A DNA stretch of 24,000 bases, taken from assembly GCF_029433445.1 (NCBI RefSeq), contig NZ_JAQTIC010000009.1:41202-65201 (forward strand), given 5' to 3'. Below are positions 7,280 to 20,521 of this stretch, one piece after another. The translations under genes were made by a program, and so were the position numbers. The DNA comes from Lactobacillus sp. ESL0701. Lineage in GTDB: Bacteria; Bacillota; Bacilli; Lactobacillales; Lactobacillaceae. Position 1 is the stretch's first letter. The number at the start of each line of letters is the position of its first letter. The notes beneath the pieces were generated by a model. That model did not search any database. It was not told the origin of the DNA and saw only the letters and a list, made by a program, of their open reading frames with translations.

Positions 7280-7302
7280 AATATAGTTTCAAAGTATTTT
7301 TA

Positions 7303-7345
7303 ACCTACCAATTGAGAAAAACTTACTTGGTAGGTATTTTTATTG
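7303..7345 (+). terminator. Rho-independent terminator after dnaI
   Basis: acctaccaa (7303-7311) pairs with ttggtaggt (7327-7335). The hairpin is followed by atttttatt. Confidence 0.7.
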
Positions 7346-7402
7346 ATTTTTGTTTTATAATTAAAATTATAGATTTACGTATCAAGTGGAGAAATGATAA
7401 GA

Positions 7403-8974
7403 ATGACAAATAATAGAGAATCTCAAGAGACAGTTCAACGACAGGAATTACATCGAAAAATTTGGGCAATTGCTGATAATGTTCGTGGAGCAGTAGATGG
7501 ATGGGATTTTAAACAGTATGTTCTTGGAATTTTGTTTTATCGCTTTATTTCAGAAAATATGACAGAATTTTTTAATTCAGCTGAGCATGAAGCTGGAGAT
7601 GATGATTTTGATTATACTGAATTATCTGATGAAGAGGCACGAGAGGATTTTGAGCCAGGAACAATTGAAGATAAGGGCTTTTTTATTTTACCTAGTCAAT
7701 TATTTGCTAATGTTTTAAAAGCTTCAAAAAACAATGAGAATCTAAATACTGATTTGGCTAATATTTTCAAAAGTATAGAAAAAAGTGCTGAAGGTCATCC
7801 ATCTGAAGATAATATTAATGGCTTATTTGCTGATATTGATACTACTAGTAATAGATTAGGCGGAACTGTTAAAGAAAAAAATGATCGTTTAAGAAAAATT
7901 CTTCAAGGTATTGCTAATATTCAATTTGATAATTTTCAAGATAATGATATCGATGCTTTTGGTGATGCTTATGAATACTTAATTTCAAATTACGCTAGTA
8001 ATGCTGGAAAATCTGGAGGGGAATTTTTTACACCACAAACTGTATCTAAATTGCTTGCTAGAATAGTTACTGATGGTAAAACTGAAATTAATAAAGTATA
8101 CGATCCAACATGTGGAAGTGGCTCTCTACTACTACAGATGAAAAAACAATTTGATGATCATGTAATTAAAGAGGGGTTTTTTGGTCAAGAAATTAATATG
8201 ACAAATTACAATATGGCACGCATGAATATGTTTTTACATGATGTCAATTATAGTGATTTTTCAATTAAGCGCGGTGATACGCTTTTGCATCCAATGCATG
8301 AAAATGATAAACCATTCGATGCAATTGTTTCTAATCCACCATATTCTCAAAAGTGGCCTGGCAATAATGATCCAACTTTGATTAACGATCCACGTTTTGC
8401 ACCAGCTGGTAAATTAGCACCAAAGAATTATGCTGATTATGCCTTTATCTTACATTGTCTCAGTTATCTTTCTTCACAAGGATTGGCAGCAATAGTTTGT
8501 TTTCCAGGTATTTTTTATCGTAAAGGTGCAGAAAAAACTATTAGACAATACCTGGTTGATAATAACTTTATTGATTGTGTAATTGCTTTACCAGAAAATT
8601 TGTTTTTTGGTACAACAATAGCAACTTGTATTATGGTGCTGTCAAAACATAAGAAAGATAATACAACACTTTTCATTGATGCCAGTAAAGAATTTCAAAA
8701 AGAAACAAACAATAATATTTTAAATAATGATAATATTACTCATATTGTTCAAGAATTTCGTGAACGTAAAGATATTGATTACTTTGCTAAAAATATTAGT
8801 CATGATGAAATTGCTAAAAATGACTACAATATGTCGGTTTCAACTTACGTTGAAAAGGAAGATACACGAGAAAAAATTGATATTGATGTTTTGAATAAGC
8901 AAATTGATCAAACTGTTAAAAAGATTGATCAATTAAGAGCTGATATTAACAAAATAGTTAAGGAATTATTGTAA
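7403..8974 (+). CDS. hsdM: Type I restriction-modification system, N6-adenine DNA methyltransferase subunit HsdM
   Basis: HsdM N-terminal domain ([36 protein letters not shown]). AdoMet motif I is [10 protein letters not shown] and catalytic motif IV is NPPYSQKW. The ATG at 7403 has better spacing to GGAGA (7387-7391) than the ATG at 7394. Either start is possible. Confidence 0.93.
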
Positions 8975-8992
8975 GTAAAGAAGGTGAGGCAA

Positions 8993-10819
8993 ATGTCAAA
9001 GATTGATGAATTGCTAAAAGATGAACATGTTGAATGGAAAAAATTGGGAAGTGTTCTAAATTATGAACAACCAACTAAGTATATTGTTAGTTCTACCAAC
9101 TATGACTCAAGTTATAAAATACCAGTCTTAACTGCAGGTCAAACTTTTATATTAGGATATACAAATGATAAAGACGGAATATATATTGCTTCAAAAGATG
9201 AACCGGTAATTATTTTTGATGACTTTACAACTTCTAGTCATTGGGTTGACTTTGACTTTAAGGTCAAATCGTCTGCAATGAAATTACTTAGACCTAAAAA
9301 TAATGAGATAAATTTGAGATATTGCTATCATTATATAAAAACAATAAGTATAGATATAGCGGAACATAAGCGAATGTGGATTTCCAAATTTTCACAAATA
9401 AAGATACCAGTTCCTTCTCTTGAAGTTCAACAAAAAATAGTAGAAATACTTGACAAATTCACAGATTATGTTACTGAATTACAGTCTGAATTACAGTCTG
9501 AATTACAGTCTAGACAACAACAATATTCTTATTATAGAGACAAATTATTATCTGAGGAATATTTGACTAAACTCTCTGAAAAGCTTGATAAACTAGGGGG
9601 GAAGAAGCAAGAAGTTAATTGGGTTCTTCTTTCTGACGTTGCAAAAATAAAAAATGGAAAAGATTGGAAATCTCTTGGCAAAGGTAAAGTTCCAGTTTAT
9701 GGCAGTGGTGGAAAAATGAATATTTCGGTTAATAAATCTGCATATTCTAAACCAACTGTATTAATTCCACGAAAAGGTTCAATAGATAATGCTTTTTACC
9801 TTGATGAACCTTTTTGGAATGTTGATACTATTTTTTATACTGAAATTGATGAAACTAGAATTATACCAAAGTATTTTTTCTATTTTGTTCAGAGCTTTGA
9901 TGTATCTCGATTGAGTACTAATCCTACTAGACCTAGTTTAACGCAAACAGATTTAAATAAAATACAGATACCAATACCACCTCTATTGATTCAAAATCAG
10001 GTTGTTTCGGTACTAGATAGATTTCAAGATTTGTTGAATAATACAGAAGGATTATTACCAGAAGAAATAGACCAAAGGCAAAAGCAATACGAATATTATC
10101 GTGATCAGCTCTTGACATTTGACTTTAATATGATAAGAACGAACGAACGAACGAACGAACGAACGATAACTAATTACTTCTTTGATATTTTAAATGCTGC
10201 CGCTAAAGCAGTTGGAATAAGACTAACTGGTGGCGTGGAATGGAAAACATTAGGAGAAATCACTGAAAGAGTTTCAACAGTTAAGTTTGAAAATGACACT
10301 AAATCATATTTTTATATTGACTTATCTTCTGTTGATAGACAAAACCATGTAGTAGTAACTGCTTCTTTAGTTAATAGACTAACAGCTCCAAGTAGGGCAA
10401 AACAGTTGATTAAGGAACATGATATTCTATTTGGTGGAACTCGCCCAATGTTAAAAAGATTTGCATATGTTAATAAAAAATTTGATGGTCAGATTGCAAG
10501 TACAGGATATACAGTACTAAGATGTAATAATTCAAATGTTATTTCTAAATTTATTTATTATCAAATTCAAACAAATAAATTCTTTAATTATATTAAAAAT
10601 ATTCAGAAAGGAACAAGTTATCCATCAGTAACAGATAATCAAGTGAAAAAATATAAAGTGCTAATTCCGACATATACAATTCAAGCCGAAATAGTAAAAG
10701 CATTAGATAGATTTAATACTCTAGTTAATAATATATCTGAAGGCTTACCTAAAGAAATTGAATTGAGACAAAAGCAGTATGAATATTATCGGGAACAATT
10801 ATTTGATTTTAAGAAGTAA
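8993..10819 (+). CDS. hsdS: Type I R-M specificity subunit HsdS, atypical 608-aa form with three TRDs and three conserved helices
   Basis: TRD1 is about 9029-9412 (EWKKLG...[14 protein letters not shown]...[11 protein letters not shown]). CR1 is 9413-9553. TRD2 is about 9608-9967. CR2 is 9968-10126 ([26 protein letters not shown]). A linker carrying (GAAC)7 follows. TRD3 is about 10235-10663 (VEWKTLGEI...APSRA...STGYTVLR). CR3 is 10664-10816 ([26 protein letters not shown]). The ATG at 8993 follows AAGGTGAGG. The track's 8984 start is a GTG. Confidence 0.9.
9474..9511 (+). repeat. Perfect 12-bp tandem repeat (ctgaattacagt) x3 plus 2 nt, in frame, inside the hsdS central conserved region
   Basis: Units lie at 9474-9485, 9486-9497 and 9498-9509. 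They encode [13 protein letters not shown], just upstream of the RQQQYSYYR helix. Confidence 0.95.
10137..10166 (+). repeat. Tetranucleotide simple-sequence repeat (GAAC)7 plus GA inside hsdS
   Basis: Seven perfect GAAC units span 10137-10164 and encode [10 protein letters not shown]. The flank gaTAAcTAAtt carries a TAA in each of the two alternative frames. Confidence 0.97.
10167..10819 (+). other. Distal half-hsdS module (TRD3 plus C-terminal-type conserved helix), currently fused in frame to hsdS
   Basis: It has the architecture of a single-TRD HsdS half. No ATG lies between the SSR and TRD3; the first in-frame ATG is at 10448, inside the TRD. The only nearby start is the GTG at 10235, which abuts GGTGG with no spacing. 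Translation therefore appears to depend on read-in from upstream. Confidence 0.6.
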
Positions 10820-10837
10820 TAAATTAAGGGAGATGCA

Positions 10838-11977
10838 ATGAAGGATAAAGAGTTTGCTTCGCTAAATGACGTAGCAAAAGATCTCAAAAAAAGTAATAAG
10901 AAAGTTACATTATTGTATGCGTTTAATGCAACGGGCAAGACAAGACTTTCTATGAAATTTAAAGATCTTGTAAATGAGACTGATGATAGTGGAGAAGAAG
11001 TTAAGCATATTATTTATTTCAATGCATTCACCGAAGATTTATTTTATTGGGATAATGATTTAGAAAATAATTTAGAACGTATTTTAAAAATAAATACTTC
11101 TTCAGCTTTTATTACATTGATTAAAAATCAAGGCATGGAGAATAGAATAGCAGAAAAATTTCGTGAATTTGCTTCCTCAAAGATTGAGCCACAAATAAAT
11201 GTTGAGACTGGTGAAATTACTTTTAGTATTCCAACTGGTGATAATGAAGCGGTTGATAATATTAAAATTTCAAAAGGTGAAGAAAGCATCTTTATTTGGT
11301 CAGTTTTTTATGTTTTGTTAGAAACCATTATTTCTGAATTAAATGAAGATAAAGAAGATCGTAGCACTAATGAATTTAATCAAATTCATTATATTTTTAT
11401 TGATGATCCAATTTCATCTTTAGATGATAATAATGCAATTGATACAGCGATTGACCTAAAAGAATTAATTGTAGGTTCCAGAAATGAAGATTTGCACTTT
11501 ATTATTTCCACCCATCATGCTCTATTTTATAATGTTTTGTTTAATGAACTTAGGCGTGATCGAAATATTAAAGATAATAAAGTTTCTTTCTTTTCTCTGC
11601 AGAAAAAAGAAAATGAAATTGGTTATGTTTTAAATAGTCAAAATGATTCACCTTTTGGTTATCATTTGATTGTAAAAGAAGAAATAGAAAATGCAATTAA
11701 AGAAAACCGAATTAAAAAATATCATTTTTTGTTGTTTAGAAATCTTTTAGAAAAAACTGCTACTTATTTAGGTTACAAAAATTGGAGTGAGCTTATAATT
11801 GGCGATGATATTTCAGAAGATAATAGGAATGGATACGTTCGTAGAATTAACTTATACAGTCATAGTAAACAGGCAGACCTTGAATATAAAGAATTGCGGC
11901 CTGAAGAAAAAAATATGTTAAAACTACTCTTTAATAATTTTATTAAAGAGTTTAAGTGGGAGGTAAAAAATGACTGA
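10838..11977 (+). CDS. prrC: PrrC-like anticodon nuclease (ABC/AAA_13-type NTPase domain plus C-terminal RNase domain)
   Basis: It lies between hsdS and hsdR, the prr-locus position. Walker A is AFNATGKT (aa 28-35), an ABC-signature-like motif is ISKGEES (aa 144-150), Walker B is YIFIDDPISSLDD (aa 185-197) and the H-loop is STHH (aa 224-227). C-terminal R301-x3-E305 (FRNLLEKT) and H342 (NLYSHS) match the spacing of the PrrC Arg-Glu-His triad (R320/E324/H356 in E. coli). Length is 379 aa versus about 396 aa for E. coli PrrC. RBS AGGGAG at 10826-10831. Confidence 0.75.
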   Translation: MKDKEFASLNDVAKDLKKSNKKVTLLYAFNATGKTRLSMKFKDLVNETDDSGEEVKHIIYFNAFTEDLFYWDNDLENNLERILKINTSSAFITLIKNQGMENRIAEKFREFASSKIEPQINVETGEITFSIPTGDNEAVDNIKISKGEESIFIWSVFYVLLETIISELNEDKEDRSTNEFNQIHYIFIDDPISSLDDNNAIDTAIDLKELIVGSRNEDLHFIISTHHALFYNVLFNELRRDRNIKDNKVSFFSLQKKENEIGYVLNSQNDSPFGYHLIVKEEIENAIKENRIKKYHFLLFRNLLEKTATYLGYKNWSELIIGDDISEDNRNGYVRRINLYSHSKQADLEYKELRPEEKNMLKLLFNNFIKEFKWEVKND

Positions 11978-14900
11978 ATCACATTTGAAATATAAAGTGA
12001 AGGTACCAGTTGCAGAATTACCTAACCAAATTATTCTCGCTGAATTTAAACCTAGGGAGCATGTACAAAAGAGTTATCAAACAGAAGCTGAATTAGAAGA
12101 AAATTTGCTTATTAGATTACAAGCTCAAGGCTATGAATTCTTATCTGCAAGTTCTTCTGCGGATTTATATGTTAATTTGAAAAAGCAAATTGAAAAGCTA
12201 AATAAAGTTGAATTTACGTCAAAAGAATGGCAACGCTTTTTGAATGAATATCTTGATAAGCCCAATGACGGAATGATTGAGAAAACACGTAAAGTCCAGA
12301 TTGATAGCGTCAAAGATTTTATTTTTGATGATGGTCATTTGAAAAATATCAAAATAATTGATAAAAAGTGTCTTAGTAACAATTATGTACAAGTAGTTCA
12401 TCAGATTAGCCAAACTGGGACGCATCATAATCGTTATGATGTAACTATTTTAGTTAACGGGCTTCCCTTAGTGCATATTGAGCTAAAAAAGCGTGGCGTC
12501 AACCTTCACGAAGCATTTAATCAAATTCATAGATACAGTAAAGAAAGTTTCAATTCAGATAATTCTTTATATAAATATGTTCAGCTTTTTGTCATTTCTA
12601 ACGGAACATACACAAGATATTTTGCCAATACTACCGCACAGGATAAAAATCATTATGAATTTACATGTGAATGGGCGGATGTTAAAAATCGACCAATTAG
12701 AGATTTAGAAGATTTTACAGCTACTTTTTTTGATAAGACTACTTTATTGGAAATAATTACAAAATATTGCGTTTTTAATTCTGATAACAAACTTTTGGTT
12801 ATGAGACCATATCAAATTGCAGCAACTGAACGAATTTTGTGGAAAATTCGTTCGAGTTATTTATCAGGAAAAGCTGGAACAATTGATGCAGGTGGGTATA
12901 TTTGGCATACTACGGGTTCTGGTAAAACCCTAACTTCTTTTAAAGTTGCTAGGTTGGTTACTCAATTAGATTACATTGCTAAAGTGTTTTTTGTTGTAGA
13001 TAGAAAAGATTTAGACTATCAAACAATGAAAGAATATCAAAGTTTTGAAAAAGACAGCGTTAATGGTAGCAAAAATACTAAAGCATTGAAGCAAAATATT
13101 GAAAAAGAAGATAATAAAATTGTTGTTACGACAATTCAAAAACTAAATGAGTTTGTAAAAAAGAATCCTAATCATGAAATATATCAGAAGCATTGCGTTT
13201 TAATTTATGATGAATGTCATCGTTCACAATTTGGTGAGGCGCAAAAAAATATTAGGAAACATTTTAAATATTATTATCAATTTGGTTTTACAGGAACACC
13301 GATTTTCCCTGAAAATGCTGCTGGTGCAGAAACTACAGGTAGCATTTTTGGAGCACAGTTGCATAGTTATATTATTACTGATGCAATTCGCGATAAAAAA
13401 GTATTAAAATTTATGGTTGACTACAATGATAGTAGGCCAATTTTTAAATCTGCAGAAATTGAACAAGATGAAAATGAGTTAGCTAAAATAAAAACTAAAA
13501 AGTTATTACTGCATCCTGATAGAATTCATGAAATTACTAAATATATTCTCAAAAATTACGATCTCAAAACACACAGAAATGAGCAATATGATATTAAGAG
13601 TAAACGCTTGAATGGTTTTACTGCTATGTTTGCTGTACAGAATATTGAAGCTGCAAGGTTATATTATGAAGAATTTAAAAAGCAGCAAAAGAATATACCT
13701 GAAGATAAGCGATTGAGAATAGCTACTATTTTTAGTTTTGCAGCTAATGGTGAGCAAGATGCAGTTGGTAGTATTGCCGATGAAAATTTTGATCCTAGTA
13801 AACTAAATTATAGTGATAAGGAATTTTTGGATGAAGCGATTAAGGATTACAATAATTTCTTTACTCCTAAAAAAAATTACTCAACTGATGGCAAGTTATT
13901 TCAGAATTATTATCAAGATTTATCCAAGGAAGTAAAAAATAGAGAAATAGATTTGTTGATTGTAGTTGGTATGTTTTTGACTGGATTTGATGCACCAACT
14001 TTGAATACTCTATTTGTTGACAAAAATCTTAGATATCATGGATTAATTCAAGCTTTTTCTAGAACTAACCGGATTTTAAATAAAGTTAAAACTTTTGGTA
14101 ACATTGTTTGTTTTCGTGATTTACAAAAACCAACTGAAGATGCAATTAAGATTTTTGGTGATAGTAATAGTGTTAATGTGATTCTTGAGAGAAGTTATCA
14201 AGATTATTTAAATGGTTTTGTTGAAGAAGAAACTGGGAAAGTTGTTAAAGGATATAAAGACCTATGTAATGAAATGATTGACAAGTTTCCTGAACCAACA
14301 AAAATTGAAACAGATTCTGATAAAAAGGAATTCGTCCAATTGTTTGGGGAAATTTTGAAATCTGATAATATTTTAAAAAATTATGATTCATATCAAGATT
14401 TTGATCAAATTATTTCTGATAGACAATTACAGGATATGAAGAGTACATACGCGGATATTCGCGAAGAGGTTTTGGAAGAGAAGCACAATAAAGCTGCTAG
14501 TGATACATCTTCAAAAATTGATTATTCTGATATTGAATTTCAAGTTGATTTATTGAAGACAGATGAAATTAATCTTGATTACATTTTAAAATTAATTTTT
14601 GAAAAGTCTAAAAAGAACAAAGATATTGGTTCGTTAAAAGTTGAGGTAAAGCGAATTATCCGGTCAAGTCTAGGTATTCGTGCTAAGGAGGATTTGATTT
14701 TGGGTTTTATCAATCATACTGATTTATCCAAATTTGAAAATTCTTCTGAAATTCTTGATTCATTTTATTCTTTTGCTAAAAAACAAAGAAAAGAAAATGT
14801 ACAAAAACTGATACAAGATGAACATTTAAAGGAAGGTGCGAATAACTTTATTGGAGATTCCATTGACAAGGGTTATGTTAATTATAATGGCTCTGAACTT

Positions 14901-15008
14901 GATAATATTTTACCTCCAGTTTCACGTAGACATGGTGCTCGTGAAGCAAAAAAACAGAGTATTTTAAGGAAAATACAAAAAATAGTAGAGGTCTTTTCAG
15001 AAACATAA
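11970..15008 (+). CDS. hsdR: Type I restriction enzyme, endonuclease/translocase subunit HsdR
   Basis: The PD-(D/E)xK nuclease core is YDVTILVNGLPLVHIELKK. SF2 helicase motifs are I (HTTGSGKT), II (YDECHRSQ), III (GFTGTP) and VI (QAFSRTNR). At 1012 aa it is in the size range of EcoR124I-type HsdR. The ATG at 11970 follows GGGAGG and overlaps the prrC end by 8 nt. Confidence 0.93.
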   Translation: MTESHLKYKVKVPVAELPNQIILAEFKPREHVQKSYQTEAELEENLLIRLQAQGYEFLSASSSADLYVNLKKQIEKLNKVEFTSKEWQRFLNEYLDKPNDGMIEKTRKVQIDSVKDFIFDDGHLKNIKIIDKKCLSNNYVQVVHQISQTGTHHNRYDVTILVNGLPLVHIELKKRGVNLHEAFNQIHRYSKESFNSDNSLYKYVQLFVISNGTYTRYFANTTAQDKNHYEFTCEWADVKNRPIRDLEDFTATFFDKTTLLEIITKYCVFNSDNKLLVMRPYQIAATERILWKIRSSYLSGKAGTIDAGGYIWHTTGSGKTLTSFKVARLVTQLDYIAKVFFVVDRKDLDYQTMKEYQSFEKDSVNGSKNTKALKQNIEKEDNKIVVTTIQKLNEFVKKNPNHEIYQKHCVLIYDECHRSQFGEAQKNIRKHFKYYYQFGFTGTPIFPENAAGAETTGSIFGAQLHSYIITDAIRDKKVLKFMVDYNDSRPIFKSAEIEQDENELAKIKTKKLLLHPDRIHEITKYILKNYDLKTHRNEQYDIKSKRLNGFTAMFAVQNIEAARLYYEEFKKQQKNIPEDKRLRIATIFSFAANGEQDAVGSIADENFDPSKLNYSDKEFLDEAIKDYNNFFTPKKNYSTDGKLFQNYYQDLSKEVKNREIDLLIVVGMFLTGFDAPTLNTLFVDKNLRYHGLIQAFSRTNRILNKVKTFGNIVCFRDLQKPTEDAIKIFGDSNSVNVILERSYQDYLNGFVEEETGKVVKGYKDLCNEMIDKFPEPTKIETDSDKKEFVQLFGEILKSDNILKNYDSYQDFDQIISDRQLQDMKSTYADIREEVLEEKHNKAASDTSSKIDYSDIEFQVDLLKTDEINLDYILKLIFEKSKKNKDIGSLKVEVKRIIRSSLGIRAKEDLILGFINHTDLSKFENSSEILDSFYSFAKKQRKENVQKLIQDEHLKEGANNFIGDSIDKGYVNYNGSELDNILPPVSRRHGAREAKKQSILRKIQKIVEVFSET

Positions 15009-15032
15009 TATAAGTTTTCTATTAAAAAGTTC

Positions 15033-15060
15033 TTGCATTTAAATGTCGTTTGCGTATAAT
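15033..15060 (+). promoter_or_regulatory. Sigma-A promoter of the thrS leader
   Basis: -35 TTGCAT (15033-15038), a 16-nt spacer, then -10 TATAAT (15055-15060). Confidence 0.7.
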
Positions 15061-15066
15061 TAAGTG

Positions 15067-15279
15067 CAACGAATGAACATGATGTTACTCAACTCAGAGA
15101 GAAGGACGTTTTTCTGGAAGTCTTTCATGAGCAAGACCCCACTCATTCTACTAATAAAGGTTTTAACAAAGGCTGGATTCCATTATCAATCTTAAGAGAG
15201 GGTTAGAGGTACTCTAATCTATTTGGGTGGAACCGCGTTAATATACGTCCCAGTGCTTAATTGCACTGGGGCTTTTTTT
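15067..15279 (+). promoter_or_regulatory. T-box riboswitch leader (threonine-specific) with intrinsic terminator
   Basis: Stem I helices are GAATGA (15071-15076) with TCATTC (15143-15148), and CATGA (15078-15082) with TCATG (15125-15129). They enclose an internal loop containing ACC (15136-15138). An AGAGAG box lies at 15096-15101 and a distal TGGAA at 15115-15119. The T-box sequence atttGGGTGGAACCGCG lies at 15221-15237. The terminator is cccagtgc/gcactggg (15249-15270) plus T7. Confidence 0.85.
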
Positions 15280-20401: not shown

Positions 20402-20521
20402 TTAGTTGAGAACAAGAAGAAGCTCCCGCTTCTCGCCTAAGTTAAGTTGACCTCTGGGCTAATCGATATTTTCTGTTGATTATGGGCGGGTAACTTAATA
20501 CTCGCCCTTTTTCTTGTCCTC
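20402..20521 (+). promoter_or_regulatory. L20 (rplT) ribosomal-protein leader / transcription attenuator upstream of infC
   Basis: The leader is about 120 nt and structured. There is a small hairpin gaagc-tccc-gcttc (20419-20432). An intrinsic terminator gggcggg/ctcgccc (20484-20507) is followed by tttttctt. A long-range complement pairs 20408-22 (gagaacaagaagaag) with 20507-21 (ctttttcttgtcctc), 14/15 including one G-U. The position matches the Firmicute L20-dependent attenuator. Confidence 0.6.

Follow-up and report, generated by a model that had tools for sequence, protein, structure and literature searches.

Repeats in the hsd genes of restriction–modification systems were surveyed in REBASE by Atack, Guo, Yang, Zhou, and Jennings (FASEB J 2019;34:1038, PMC7383803; cited as Atack et al., 2019 in the following). 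"Extended" phase-variable specificity genes (hsdS) are reported there for Mannheimia haemolytica, with a G[n] tract, and for Fusobacterium nucleatum, with an AAGAC[n] tract of 5–12 units (section 3.4). In both species, three target recognition domains (TRDs) are encoded in one hsdS gene with a frameshifting repeat between TRD2 and TRD3. A three-TRD protein is formed when the repeat is in frame, and a full two-TRD protein, not a half, when it is out of frame. The tract length of extended hsdS genes differs between isolates, and in REBASE the two-TRD form of M. haemolytica has the motif CAACN4GT and the three-TRD form the motif CAACN5TC (Atack et al., 2019). The subject of the present analysis is an hsdS gene of Lactobacillus sp. 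ESL0701, which shares this arrangement. It is located in a stretch of 24,000 nucleotides (assembly GCF_029433445.1, contig NZ_JAQTIC010000009.1, positions 41,202 to 65,201 of the forward strand), termed the window below. Judged from sequence, it is a phase-variable extended hsdS of a Type IC restriction–modification system, switched by slipped-strand mispairing in a (GAAC)n tract, with a probability of roughly 0.8.

The ESL0701 locus shows all those defining features of an extended hsdS sensu Atack et al. (2019) that lie at the sequence level. An earlier note on this stretch of DNA had held that the toggling of a third TRD is not a described mechanism. This was wrong, since exactly such a switch is the subject of the cited section. 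The locus differs from those of M. haemolytica and F. nucleatum in the repeat unit GAAC, in the host, a commensal Firmicute of the bee-gut-type Lactobacillus, and in the presence of prrC in the operon. These three features are new, whereas the kind of switch itself is already described. Neither Mannheimia nor Fusobacterium was among the best 80 loci found for the ESL0701 locus; the likeness considered here is one of architecture. AG[n] tracts are present in many hsdS genes of the Mycoplasmataceae, and a survey of the spread of extended hsdS genes as well as work on their mechanism were called for (Atack et al., 2019). A search of the available literature brought up no subsequent experiments on extended HsdS proteins.

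Other switchable Type I systems resemble the locus less closely. In the NgoAV hsdS of Neisseria gonorrhoeae, a poly-G tract after a conserved helix shifts the frame and changes the specificity (Atack et al., 2019). In NgoAV, the two products are an HsdS with two TRDs and a dimerizing half with a single TRD, while the tract of ESL0701 follows the second conserved helix, and the short form keeps two TRDs and two helices. A truncating switch of the NgoAV type was discarded as an explanation because the short product is complete. The inverting hsdS systems (SpnD39III of Streptococcus pneumoniae, hsdS/hsdS' of Streptococcus suis, and Mycoplasma pulmonis) likewise let one Type I enzyme alternate its expressed TRD. 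Silent hsdS' copies with inverted repeats underlie these systems, in most cases along with a recombinase. No inverted or second hsdS copy and no recombinase open reading frame (ORF) were found in the ESL0701 operon. The inverted repeats that were detected are not longer than 34 nt, AT-rich, and approximately 71%–93% matched, and switching by inversion was rejected in the absence of silent copies, long inverted repeats, and a recombinase.

In EcoR124I and EcoR124II, the number of TAEL repeats in the central helix of HsdS sets an N6 or N7 spacer. The ESL0701 system belongs to the same Type IC family and carries (SELQ)3 at the equivalent place. A TAEL-type repeat stays in frame and alters the spacing, not the domain content, unlike (GAAC)n. 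The gene order hsdM-hsdS-prrC-hsdR of the ESL0701 operon is that of the prr locus of Escherichia coli (EcoprrI, Type IC), and the PrrC match is strong. We know of no repeat-gated third TRD in the hsdS of EcoprrI.

Anatomy of hsdS and reading frames at the GAAC tract

Slipped-strand mispairing in (GAAC)n, which is inferred to occur in the Lactobacillus of ESL0701 as well, would move translation into another frame directly behind the second conserved helix. With a number of units n for which n mod 3 = 1, as at present with n = 7, translation would run through a loop, a short helix, TRD3, and the third conserved helix and give a three-TRD HsdS of 608 amino acids (aa). Any other n would lead to a stop 1–9 nt after the tract and to a complete, EcoR124-like two-TRD HsdS of approximately 390 aa. 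The methylase (M2S) and the nuclease (R2M2S) both take their target from HsdS. Two different recognition sequences are therefore expected for the two states, in methylation and restriction alike. The features of the gene are listed below (CR, conserved region); residue numbers refer to the 608-aa form unless stated otherwise.

8993..10819, + strand: hsdS in its present in-frame extended state, three TRD–helix modules, 608 aa from ATG 8993 (611 aa from GTG 8984)
8993..9400, + strand: TRD1, residues 1–136, boundaries from the secondary structure of the AlphaFold2 (AF2) model
9401..9592, + strand: CR1, central-type conserved helix, residues 137–200, AF2 helix at residues 143–185, carries (SELQ)3
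9593..9964, + strand: TRD2, residues 201–324, best Pfam Methylase_S stretch (residues 214–362 in the 611-aa GTG numbering)
9965..10126, + strand: CR2, C-terminal-type conserved helix, residues 325–378, aligned with EcoR124II HsdS
10137..10166, + strand: (GAAC)7 followed by GA, tract that sets the reading frame, peptide residues ~382–391, located by Tandem Repeats Finder (TRF)
10167..10173, + strand: TAAcTAA, stop codons of both alternative frames (10167–10169 and 10171–10173)
10169..10222, + strand: conserved linker helix after the tract, residues 393–410, AF2 helix at residues 394–406
10223..10654, + strand: TRD3, the putatively gated domain, residues 411–554, Pfam and PADLOC specificity-domain matches
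10655..10819, + strand: CR3, second C-terminal-type helix, and stop codon, residues 555–608, from module comparison

The tract consists of seven perfect GAAC units at 10137–10164 on the + strand, followed by GA (7.5 copies with 100% match at 10137–10166 according to TRF), within the hsdS ORF listed as 8984..10819. Runs of three or more GAAC or GTTC units are absent from the rest of the window, and the expected number of matches to a 20-nt (GAAC)5 probe was 0 in 100 dinucleotide-preserving shuffles. The earlier note had placed the tract at the junction where a complete two-TRD HsdS gives way to another TRD with its helix, and this was confirmed by TRF, Pfam, and the module boundaries.

The frame outcomes were derived from the gene rebuilt in silico with 3 to 11 GAAC units. 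Variants with n = 4, 7, and 10 read through and encode 607, 611, and 615 aa, respectively, counted from the GTG. With n = 3, 6, and 9 the product ends in ...NER at the stop codon TAA 10167–10169, and with n = 5, 8, and 11 it ends in ...NDN at TAA 10171–10173. The translations made by hand for the loss and the gain of one unit were thereby reproduced, and the expectation that changes by other than multiples of three give a two-TRD HsdS of approximately 390 aa agrees with these variants and with the alignment to EcoR124II HsdS. In all three frames, the repeat is read only as GAA, CGA, ACG, and AAC without a stop codon, so termination is set by the flank, not by the tract. It is correct that both other frames stop within 9 nt, yet such a detail is only mildly unusual: a quick stop in both alternative frames (within two sense codons) follows 3.9% of the codon positions in the genes of the window. 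The dual-stop flank is real but only mildly beyond chance alone in AT-rich DNA; against this background frequency, it was dropped as proof of design and kept as weak support for the switch.

The true start of hsdS is most likely ATG 8993, as it is preceded by the Shine–Dalgarno sequence GAAGGTGAGG and was also chosen in the gene call on an identical contig of the Logan collection (see below). Pfam matched Methylase_S in three stretches of the ORF. The PADLOC Specificity_I profiles matched residues 3–376 and, separately, residues 206–608; the first match covers positions 6–409 of a 417-position profile, and the second covers by itself a complete 388-position profile. The first 391 residues of HsdS align with EcoR124II HsdS (PDB 7bst_A) with an E-value of 2.2e-71. 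TRD1 and CR1 correspond to residues 4–196 of 7bst_A at 196.7 bits, a large proportion of the aligned residues being identical, CR2 aligns to residues 302–396 of the 404-aa EcoR124II HsdS, and the out-of-frame product of 391 aa ends within 8 residues of the EcoR124II C-terminus. The out-of-frame product is thus a complete specificity subunit, in agreement with the earlier note, and not a half subunit.

The module comparison found no significant similarity among TRD1, TRD2, and TRD3, which are mutually unrelated. CR2 and CR3 share 30 of 54 residues and are both of the C-terminal type, while CR1 is of the central type. At the DNA level, CR2 and CR3 are only 70% identical over 94 nt (repeat family D1), and recombination between them was rejected as the switch, there being no direct repeat of sufficient length and similarity. 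The motif of the linker helix, xISNxYxxxLxEAAxxVxV, was seen again in the alignment of homologues. In the AF2 model of the 608-aa form (mean predicted local distance difference test score, pLDDT, 83.6), three TRD–helix modules were predicted with confidence. Residues 383–386, encoded by the tract, had a pLDDT below 50, and the tract-encoded peptide looks like a loop in the model. EcoR124I HsdS was the top Foldseek match of the model, at a root mean square deviation of 31 Å. A control model of the two-TRD product, built from an alignment of 12 sequences with a pLDDT of 61.4, was discarded.

A second repeat is located in CR1. The perfect 12-bp tandem repeat CTGAATTACAGT, present in 3.2 copies at 9474–9511 (TRF, 100% match; repeat family D4), encodes (SELQ)3. 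Among the 120 best homologues, the number of xELx units is one in 7 proteins, two in 75, and three, as in the window, in 33, while 5 proteins have none. Alleles of S. suis are one xELx unit apart. The (SELQ)3 repeat is a second, in-frame candidate source of specificity variation in the same hsdS. The likeness of TRD1 to EcoR124II HsdS suggests a half-site of the GAA type, and the three SELQ units tentatively match the form with the longer spacer (N7).

Tract length and frame state at homologous loci

Exact-protein look-ups yielded a single other contig with the locus, from the Logan assembly of SRR22533727. It is identical over 9954 nt, again with n = 7, and probably derives from the same isolate. 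That seven units are an assembly artefact, with a different true unit number and a fused ORF that is no real state, is extremely improbable. Short-read assemblers can collapse repeat tracts (Atack et al., 2019), but a tract of 28 nt fits well inside one short read, and the GenBank and Logan assemblies agree base for base. The GenBank protein suffixes 83 (hsdM) and 85 (AAA ATPase) leave one slot between them, which would fit a single hsdS coding sequence.

The homologue search returned many HsdS proteins of 585–635 aa with the same three-module plan, in addition to forms of approximately 375–403 aa. At the junction after the CR2 motif, most of the 120 best homologues are repetitive. The peptide repeats found there are RTNE, encoded by (GAAC)n, THAR, encoded by (ACGC)n, (TH)n, (RE)n, STVQY, RFDSI, and QTDR. 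The STVQY repeat of S. suis corresponds to a five-nucleotide unit; the S. suis homologues are one to three STVQY units apart, and both truncated frames are present, with the ends ...STDKT and ...TRPD. One protein with two RTNE units (P0018, n = 7) is 99% identical to two proteins with one unit (P0031 and P0034, n = 4). Two relatives with approximately 50% identity to the protein of the window also carry (GAAC)7.

A scan of metagenomes for the shared left flank followed by at least three GAAC units gave 17 contigs with n = 3, 4, 6, 8, 10, 11, and 15. In a lineage with identical flanks (LTFDVECS ... gttcataatatctaa), the alleles with n = 4 and n = 7 are in frame, whereas n = 6 ends in ...NERS and n = 8 in ...NVHNI. 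A comparison of the unit number at related loci, proposed in the earlier note as a check, thus came out in favor of variation, with both frame states present. The silent TRD3 frame is open for 200–219 aa, up to the CR3 motif, in seven of nine informative out-of-frame alleles; this fits a reversible switch and would not be predicted for a decaying pseudogene. The two remaining alleles, both out-of-frame (GAAC)6 (L094 and L107), have shortened TRD3 frames of 137 and 67 aa, respectively, and may be decaying copies or assembly problems.

In species-representative genomes, a frameshifting repeat 57–66 nt after the CR2 motif was found at 13 loci. Five are in frame: Veillonella parvula with (AGAC)7, a metagenome-assembled genome (MAG) of the Peptoniphilaceae with (AGAC)13, two Peptoniphilus with (GCACGCC)3, and Streptococcus parasanguinis with (ACAGT)3. 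Seven are out of frame, namely those of Helcococcus, a Faecalibacterium MAG, Solobacterium, Peptacetobacter with (ACAG)24, Eggerthia, Lachnoanaerobaculum with (ACGC)9, and Streptococcus mitis. At these seven loci, the stop codon lies at the end of the tract or not more than 15 nt beyond it, and the downstream TRD3-CR3 ORF is intact (197–222 aa). The remaining locus is interrupted by a contig end. Across the Firmicutes, the same junction also carries AGAC, ACAG, ACGC, AC, AG, AGTAC, and GCACGCC, in frame or out of frame depending on the genome. Across lineages, the junction was found with at least nine different frameshifting units.

Several observations weigh against a switch at the ESL0701 locus. 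Within the species a single strain is represented, and both assemblies have n = 7. Seven tetranucleotide units make a short tract (28 nt). A minority of homologues (the Streptococcus oralis group, P0008, P0056, and P0089) retain three TRDs with non-repetitive linkers at the junction, so that the three-TRD form can be a fixed state. The domain arrangement was not resolved by AF2 (predicted template modelling score 0.48 for the 608-aa form), and the helix pairing could not be read from the model. The value n = 7 in both assemblies, the shortness of the tract, and the non-repetitive linkers would also agree with a fixed in-frame linker, in which the three-TRD form is the only functional one and a flexible (RTNE)n loop is inherited that slips too rarely to matter. 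This explanation is nevertheless quite improbable. Loci with identical flanks and the same unit have n = 4, 6, 7, and 8 in both frame states, at least nine frameshifting units recur at the one junction, both other frames stop immediately here and in relatives, and the silent TRD3 ORFs stay intact. The earlier note had named a non-repetitive linker in homologues as evidence that would make the tract incidental; such linkers do occur, but in a minority, the junction being repetitive in most of the 120 best homologues.

According to a different view, TRD3-CR3 is a separate half-size hsdS gene ("S2"), which in the out-of-frame state would be translated independently and form a homodimer with palindromic specificity, the present fusion being incidental. 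Such downstream parts are labeled as S2 genes in REBASE (Atack et al., 2019), half-HsdS proteins such as those of NgoAV and the truncated EcoDXXI can dimerize, and an in-frame GTG (GTG GAA TGG) is present at 10235–10237, where the VEWKTLG motif begins (codons counted from ATA at 10166 as the first complete codon beyond the tract). However, this sole GTG has GGTGG only 1 nt upstream, too close for a ribosome-binding site, and the TRD3 frame contains no ATG or TTG over ~90 codons downstream of the tract; its earliest ATG is located well inside TRD3. Single in-frame ORFs are common across species, and promoter-like consensus matches in the operon, including those inside hsdS, occur at the level of shuffled sequence. 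No terminator was found within hsdS either, and internal promoters and terminators were discarded as candidates. Lacking a usable start codon with a ribosome-binding site, independent translation of TRD3 was judged unlikely, and a separate S2 gene is a very unlikely account of the locus.

Further observations concern the repeats of related loci. P0018 is 94% identical overall to P0027, P0030, and P0038, but their junction units differ, RTNE/(GAAC)n versus THAR/(ACGC)n, and the first residues after the tract differ slightly, too. The repeat cassette itself thus appears to undergo exchange or rapid evolution. A protein of [Mycoplasma] anseris (P0108, 844 aa) has four TRD–helix modules and two (RE)n linkers, GREREREREEQ and GREREREREREI, each of which stands after a C-terminal-type helix. 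As read at the protein level, two independent dinucleotide tracts probably act as its gates, which would allow more than two states. In two-TRD hsdS genes of Haemophilus haemolyticus and H. parahaemolyticus, a G10 tract (L021 4660–4669 and L026 4570–4579) is located 65 nt after the central helix motif, the same offset as that of the tracts after CR2. A switch at this tract would resemble that of NgoAV, with one TRD or two.

Operon context

hsdM, hsdS, a gene of 379 aa, and hsdR form one tight operon at 7394–15008, as determined with Pfam and PADLOC. The genes other than hsdS are as follows.

7394..8974, + strand: hsdM, Type I methyltransferase subunit, 526 aa (Pfam N6_Mtase, E 3.5e-116; HsdM_N, E 3.7e-19), named Type I R-M subunit M in the sequence look-up
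10838..11977, + strand: prrC-like anticodon nuclease gene, 379 aa (PADLOC PrrC, E 2.4e-126; Pfam only AAA_13)
11970..15008, + strand: hsdR, Type IC restriction subunit, 1012 aa (Pfam HSDR_N, SWI2_SNF2, T1R_D3-like, EcoR124_C)

The PrrC match extends over residues 5–377 of the protein and positions 17–349 of the 372-position profile, and the 3' end of the prrC-like gene overlaps the start of hsdR by 8 nt. The EcoR124_C domain of HsdR (E 3.2e-53), together with the match of HsdS to 7bst_A and the (SELQ)3 repeat, assigns the system to Type IC (EcoR124 family). In the out-of-frame state, approximately 650 nt of mRNA before prrC and hsdR would not be translated, which might lower restriction during the changeover of methylation.

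The operon is flanked by dnaI and thrS and surrounded by further housekeeping genes (polA, fpg, dnaB, dnaI ... thrS, yqeH). The hsd proteins are grouped in clusters with one or two entries, for all of which Lactobacillus sp. ESL0701 is the source, while the flanking core proteins Fpg and YqeH belong to clusters common to several other ESL Lactobacillus strains. Therefore, the hsd-prrC operon (7300–15250) looks like a strain-specific insertion between dnaI and thrS. The closest gut-metagenome (GAAC)n lineage (L002–L009) is organized differently: a RhuM-family gene (334 aa, e.g., L002 4996–6000) lies between hsdM and hsdS, prrC is absent, and a Mrr_cat gene follows hsdR.

Outside the operon, a strong terminator-like hairpin at 15247–15272 (10 pairs, 7 of them G–C, followed by a T-run) ends 6 nt ahead of position 15278, where the TTG start of thrS is listed, and would fit a leader or attenuator; Rfam reported no T-box at the gathering threshold. 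Across the whole window, Rfam matched a single family, L20_leader at 20408–20519 (66.2 bits, E 2.3e-11).

TRD pairing and biological meaning

For the three-TRD state, we favor a model in which TRD3-CR3 and TRD2-CR2 compete as partners of TRD1-CR1, by analogy with M. haemolytica. This model is favored because CR2 and CR3 are interchangeable helices of the C-terminal type, while CR1 is the sole central-type helix, and it is also suggested by the shift of the M. haemolytica motif from CAACN4GT to CAACN5TC. The same analogy lets different motifs be expected for the two HsdS forms of ESL0701. TRD2 might also pair with TRD3, which is conceivable because residues 206–608 alone cover a complete specificity profile. 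Instead of a simple exchange of TRD2 for TRD3, the three-TRD HsdS would then assemble in several ways (TRD1-TRD2, TRD1-TRD3, or even TRD2-TRD3). Such multiple assembly is unlikely, but if true, a single state of the gene would lead to methylation and restriction of two or more motifs in parallel, and the number of in-frame RTNE units (one, two, or three in nature) could tune the ratio of the assemblies.

As far as can be read from the homologous loci, the repeat-gated third TRD extends beyond the two pathogens in which it was first described to one fixed junction in many Firmicutes. The lineages with a junction repeat comprise Veillonella, Streptococcus, Peptoniphilus, Helcococcus, Eggerthia, Lachnoanaerobaculum, and lineages known from gut metagenomes. 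With a variety of repeat units at one junction, and with the four TRDs and two repeat linkers of the Mycoplasma protein, the wider pattern modestly extends what has been published. The ESL0701 system is a compact Type IC example with a TRD1 similar to the one of EcoR124I, whose structure is solved. It would be a convenient model of how three TRDs are fitted into a two-TRD enzyme. If the proposed switch is true, a bee-gut-type Lactobacillus would be able to change the target of its restriction–modification system heritably and reversibly. Such a change would alter which phages and plasmids are restricted and could alter the genome-wide methylation and thereby gene expression.

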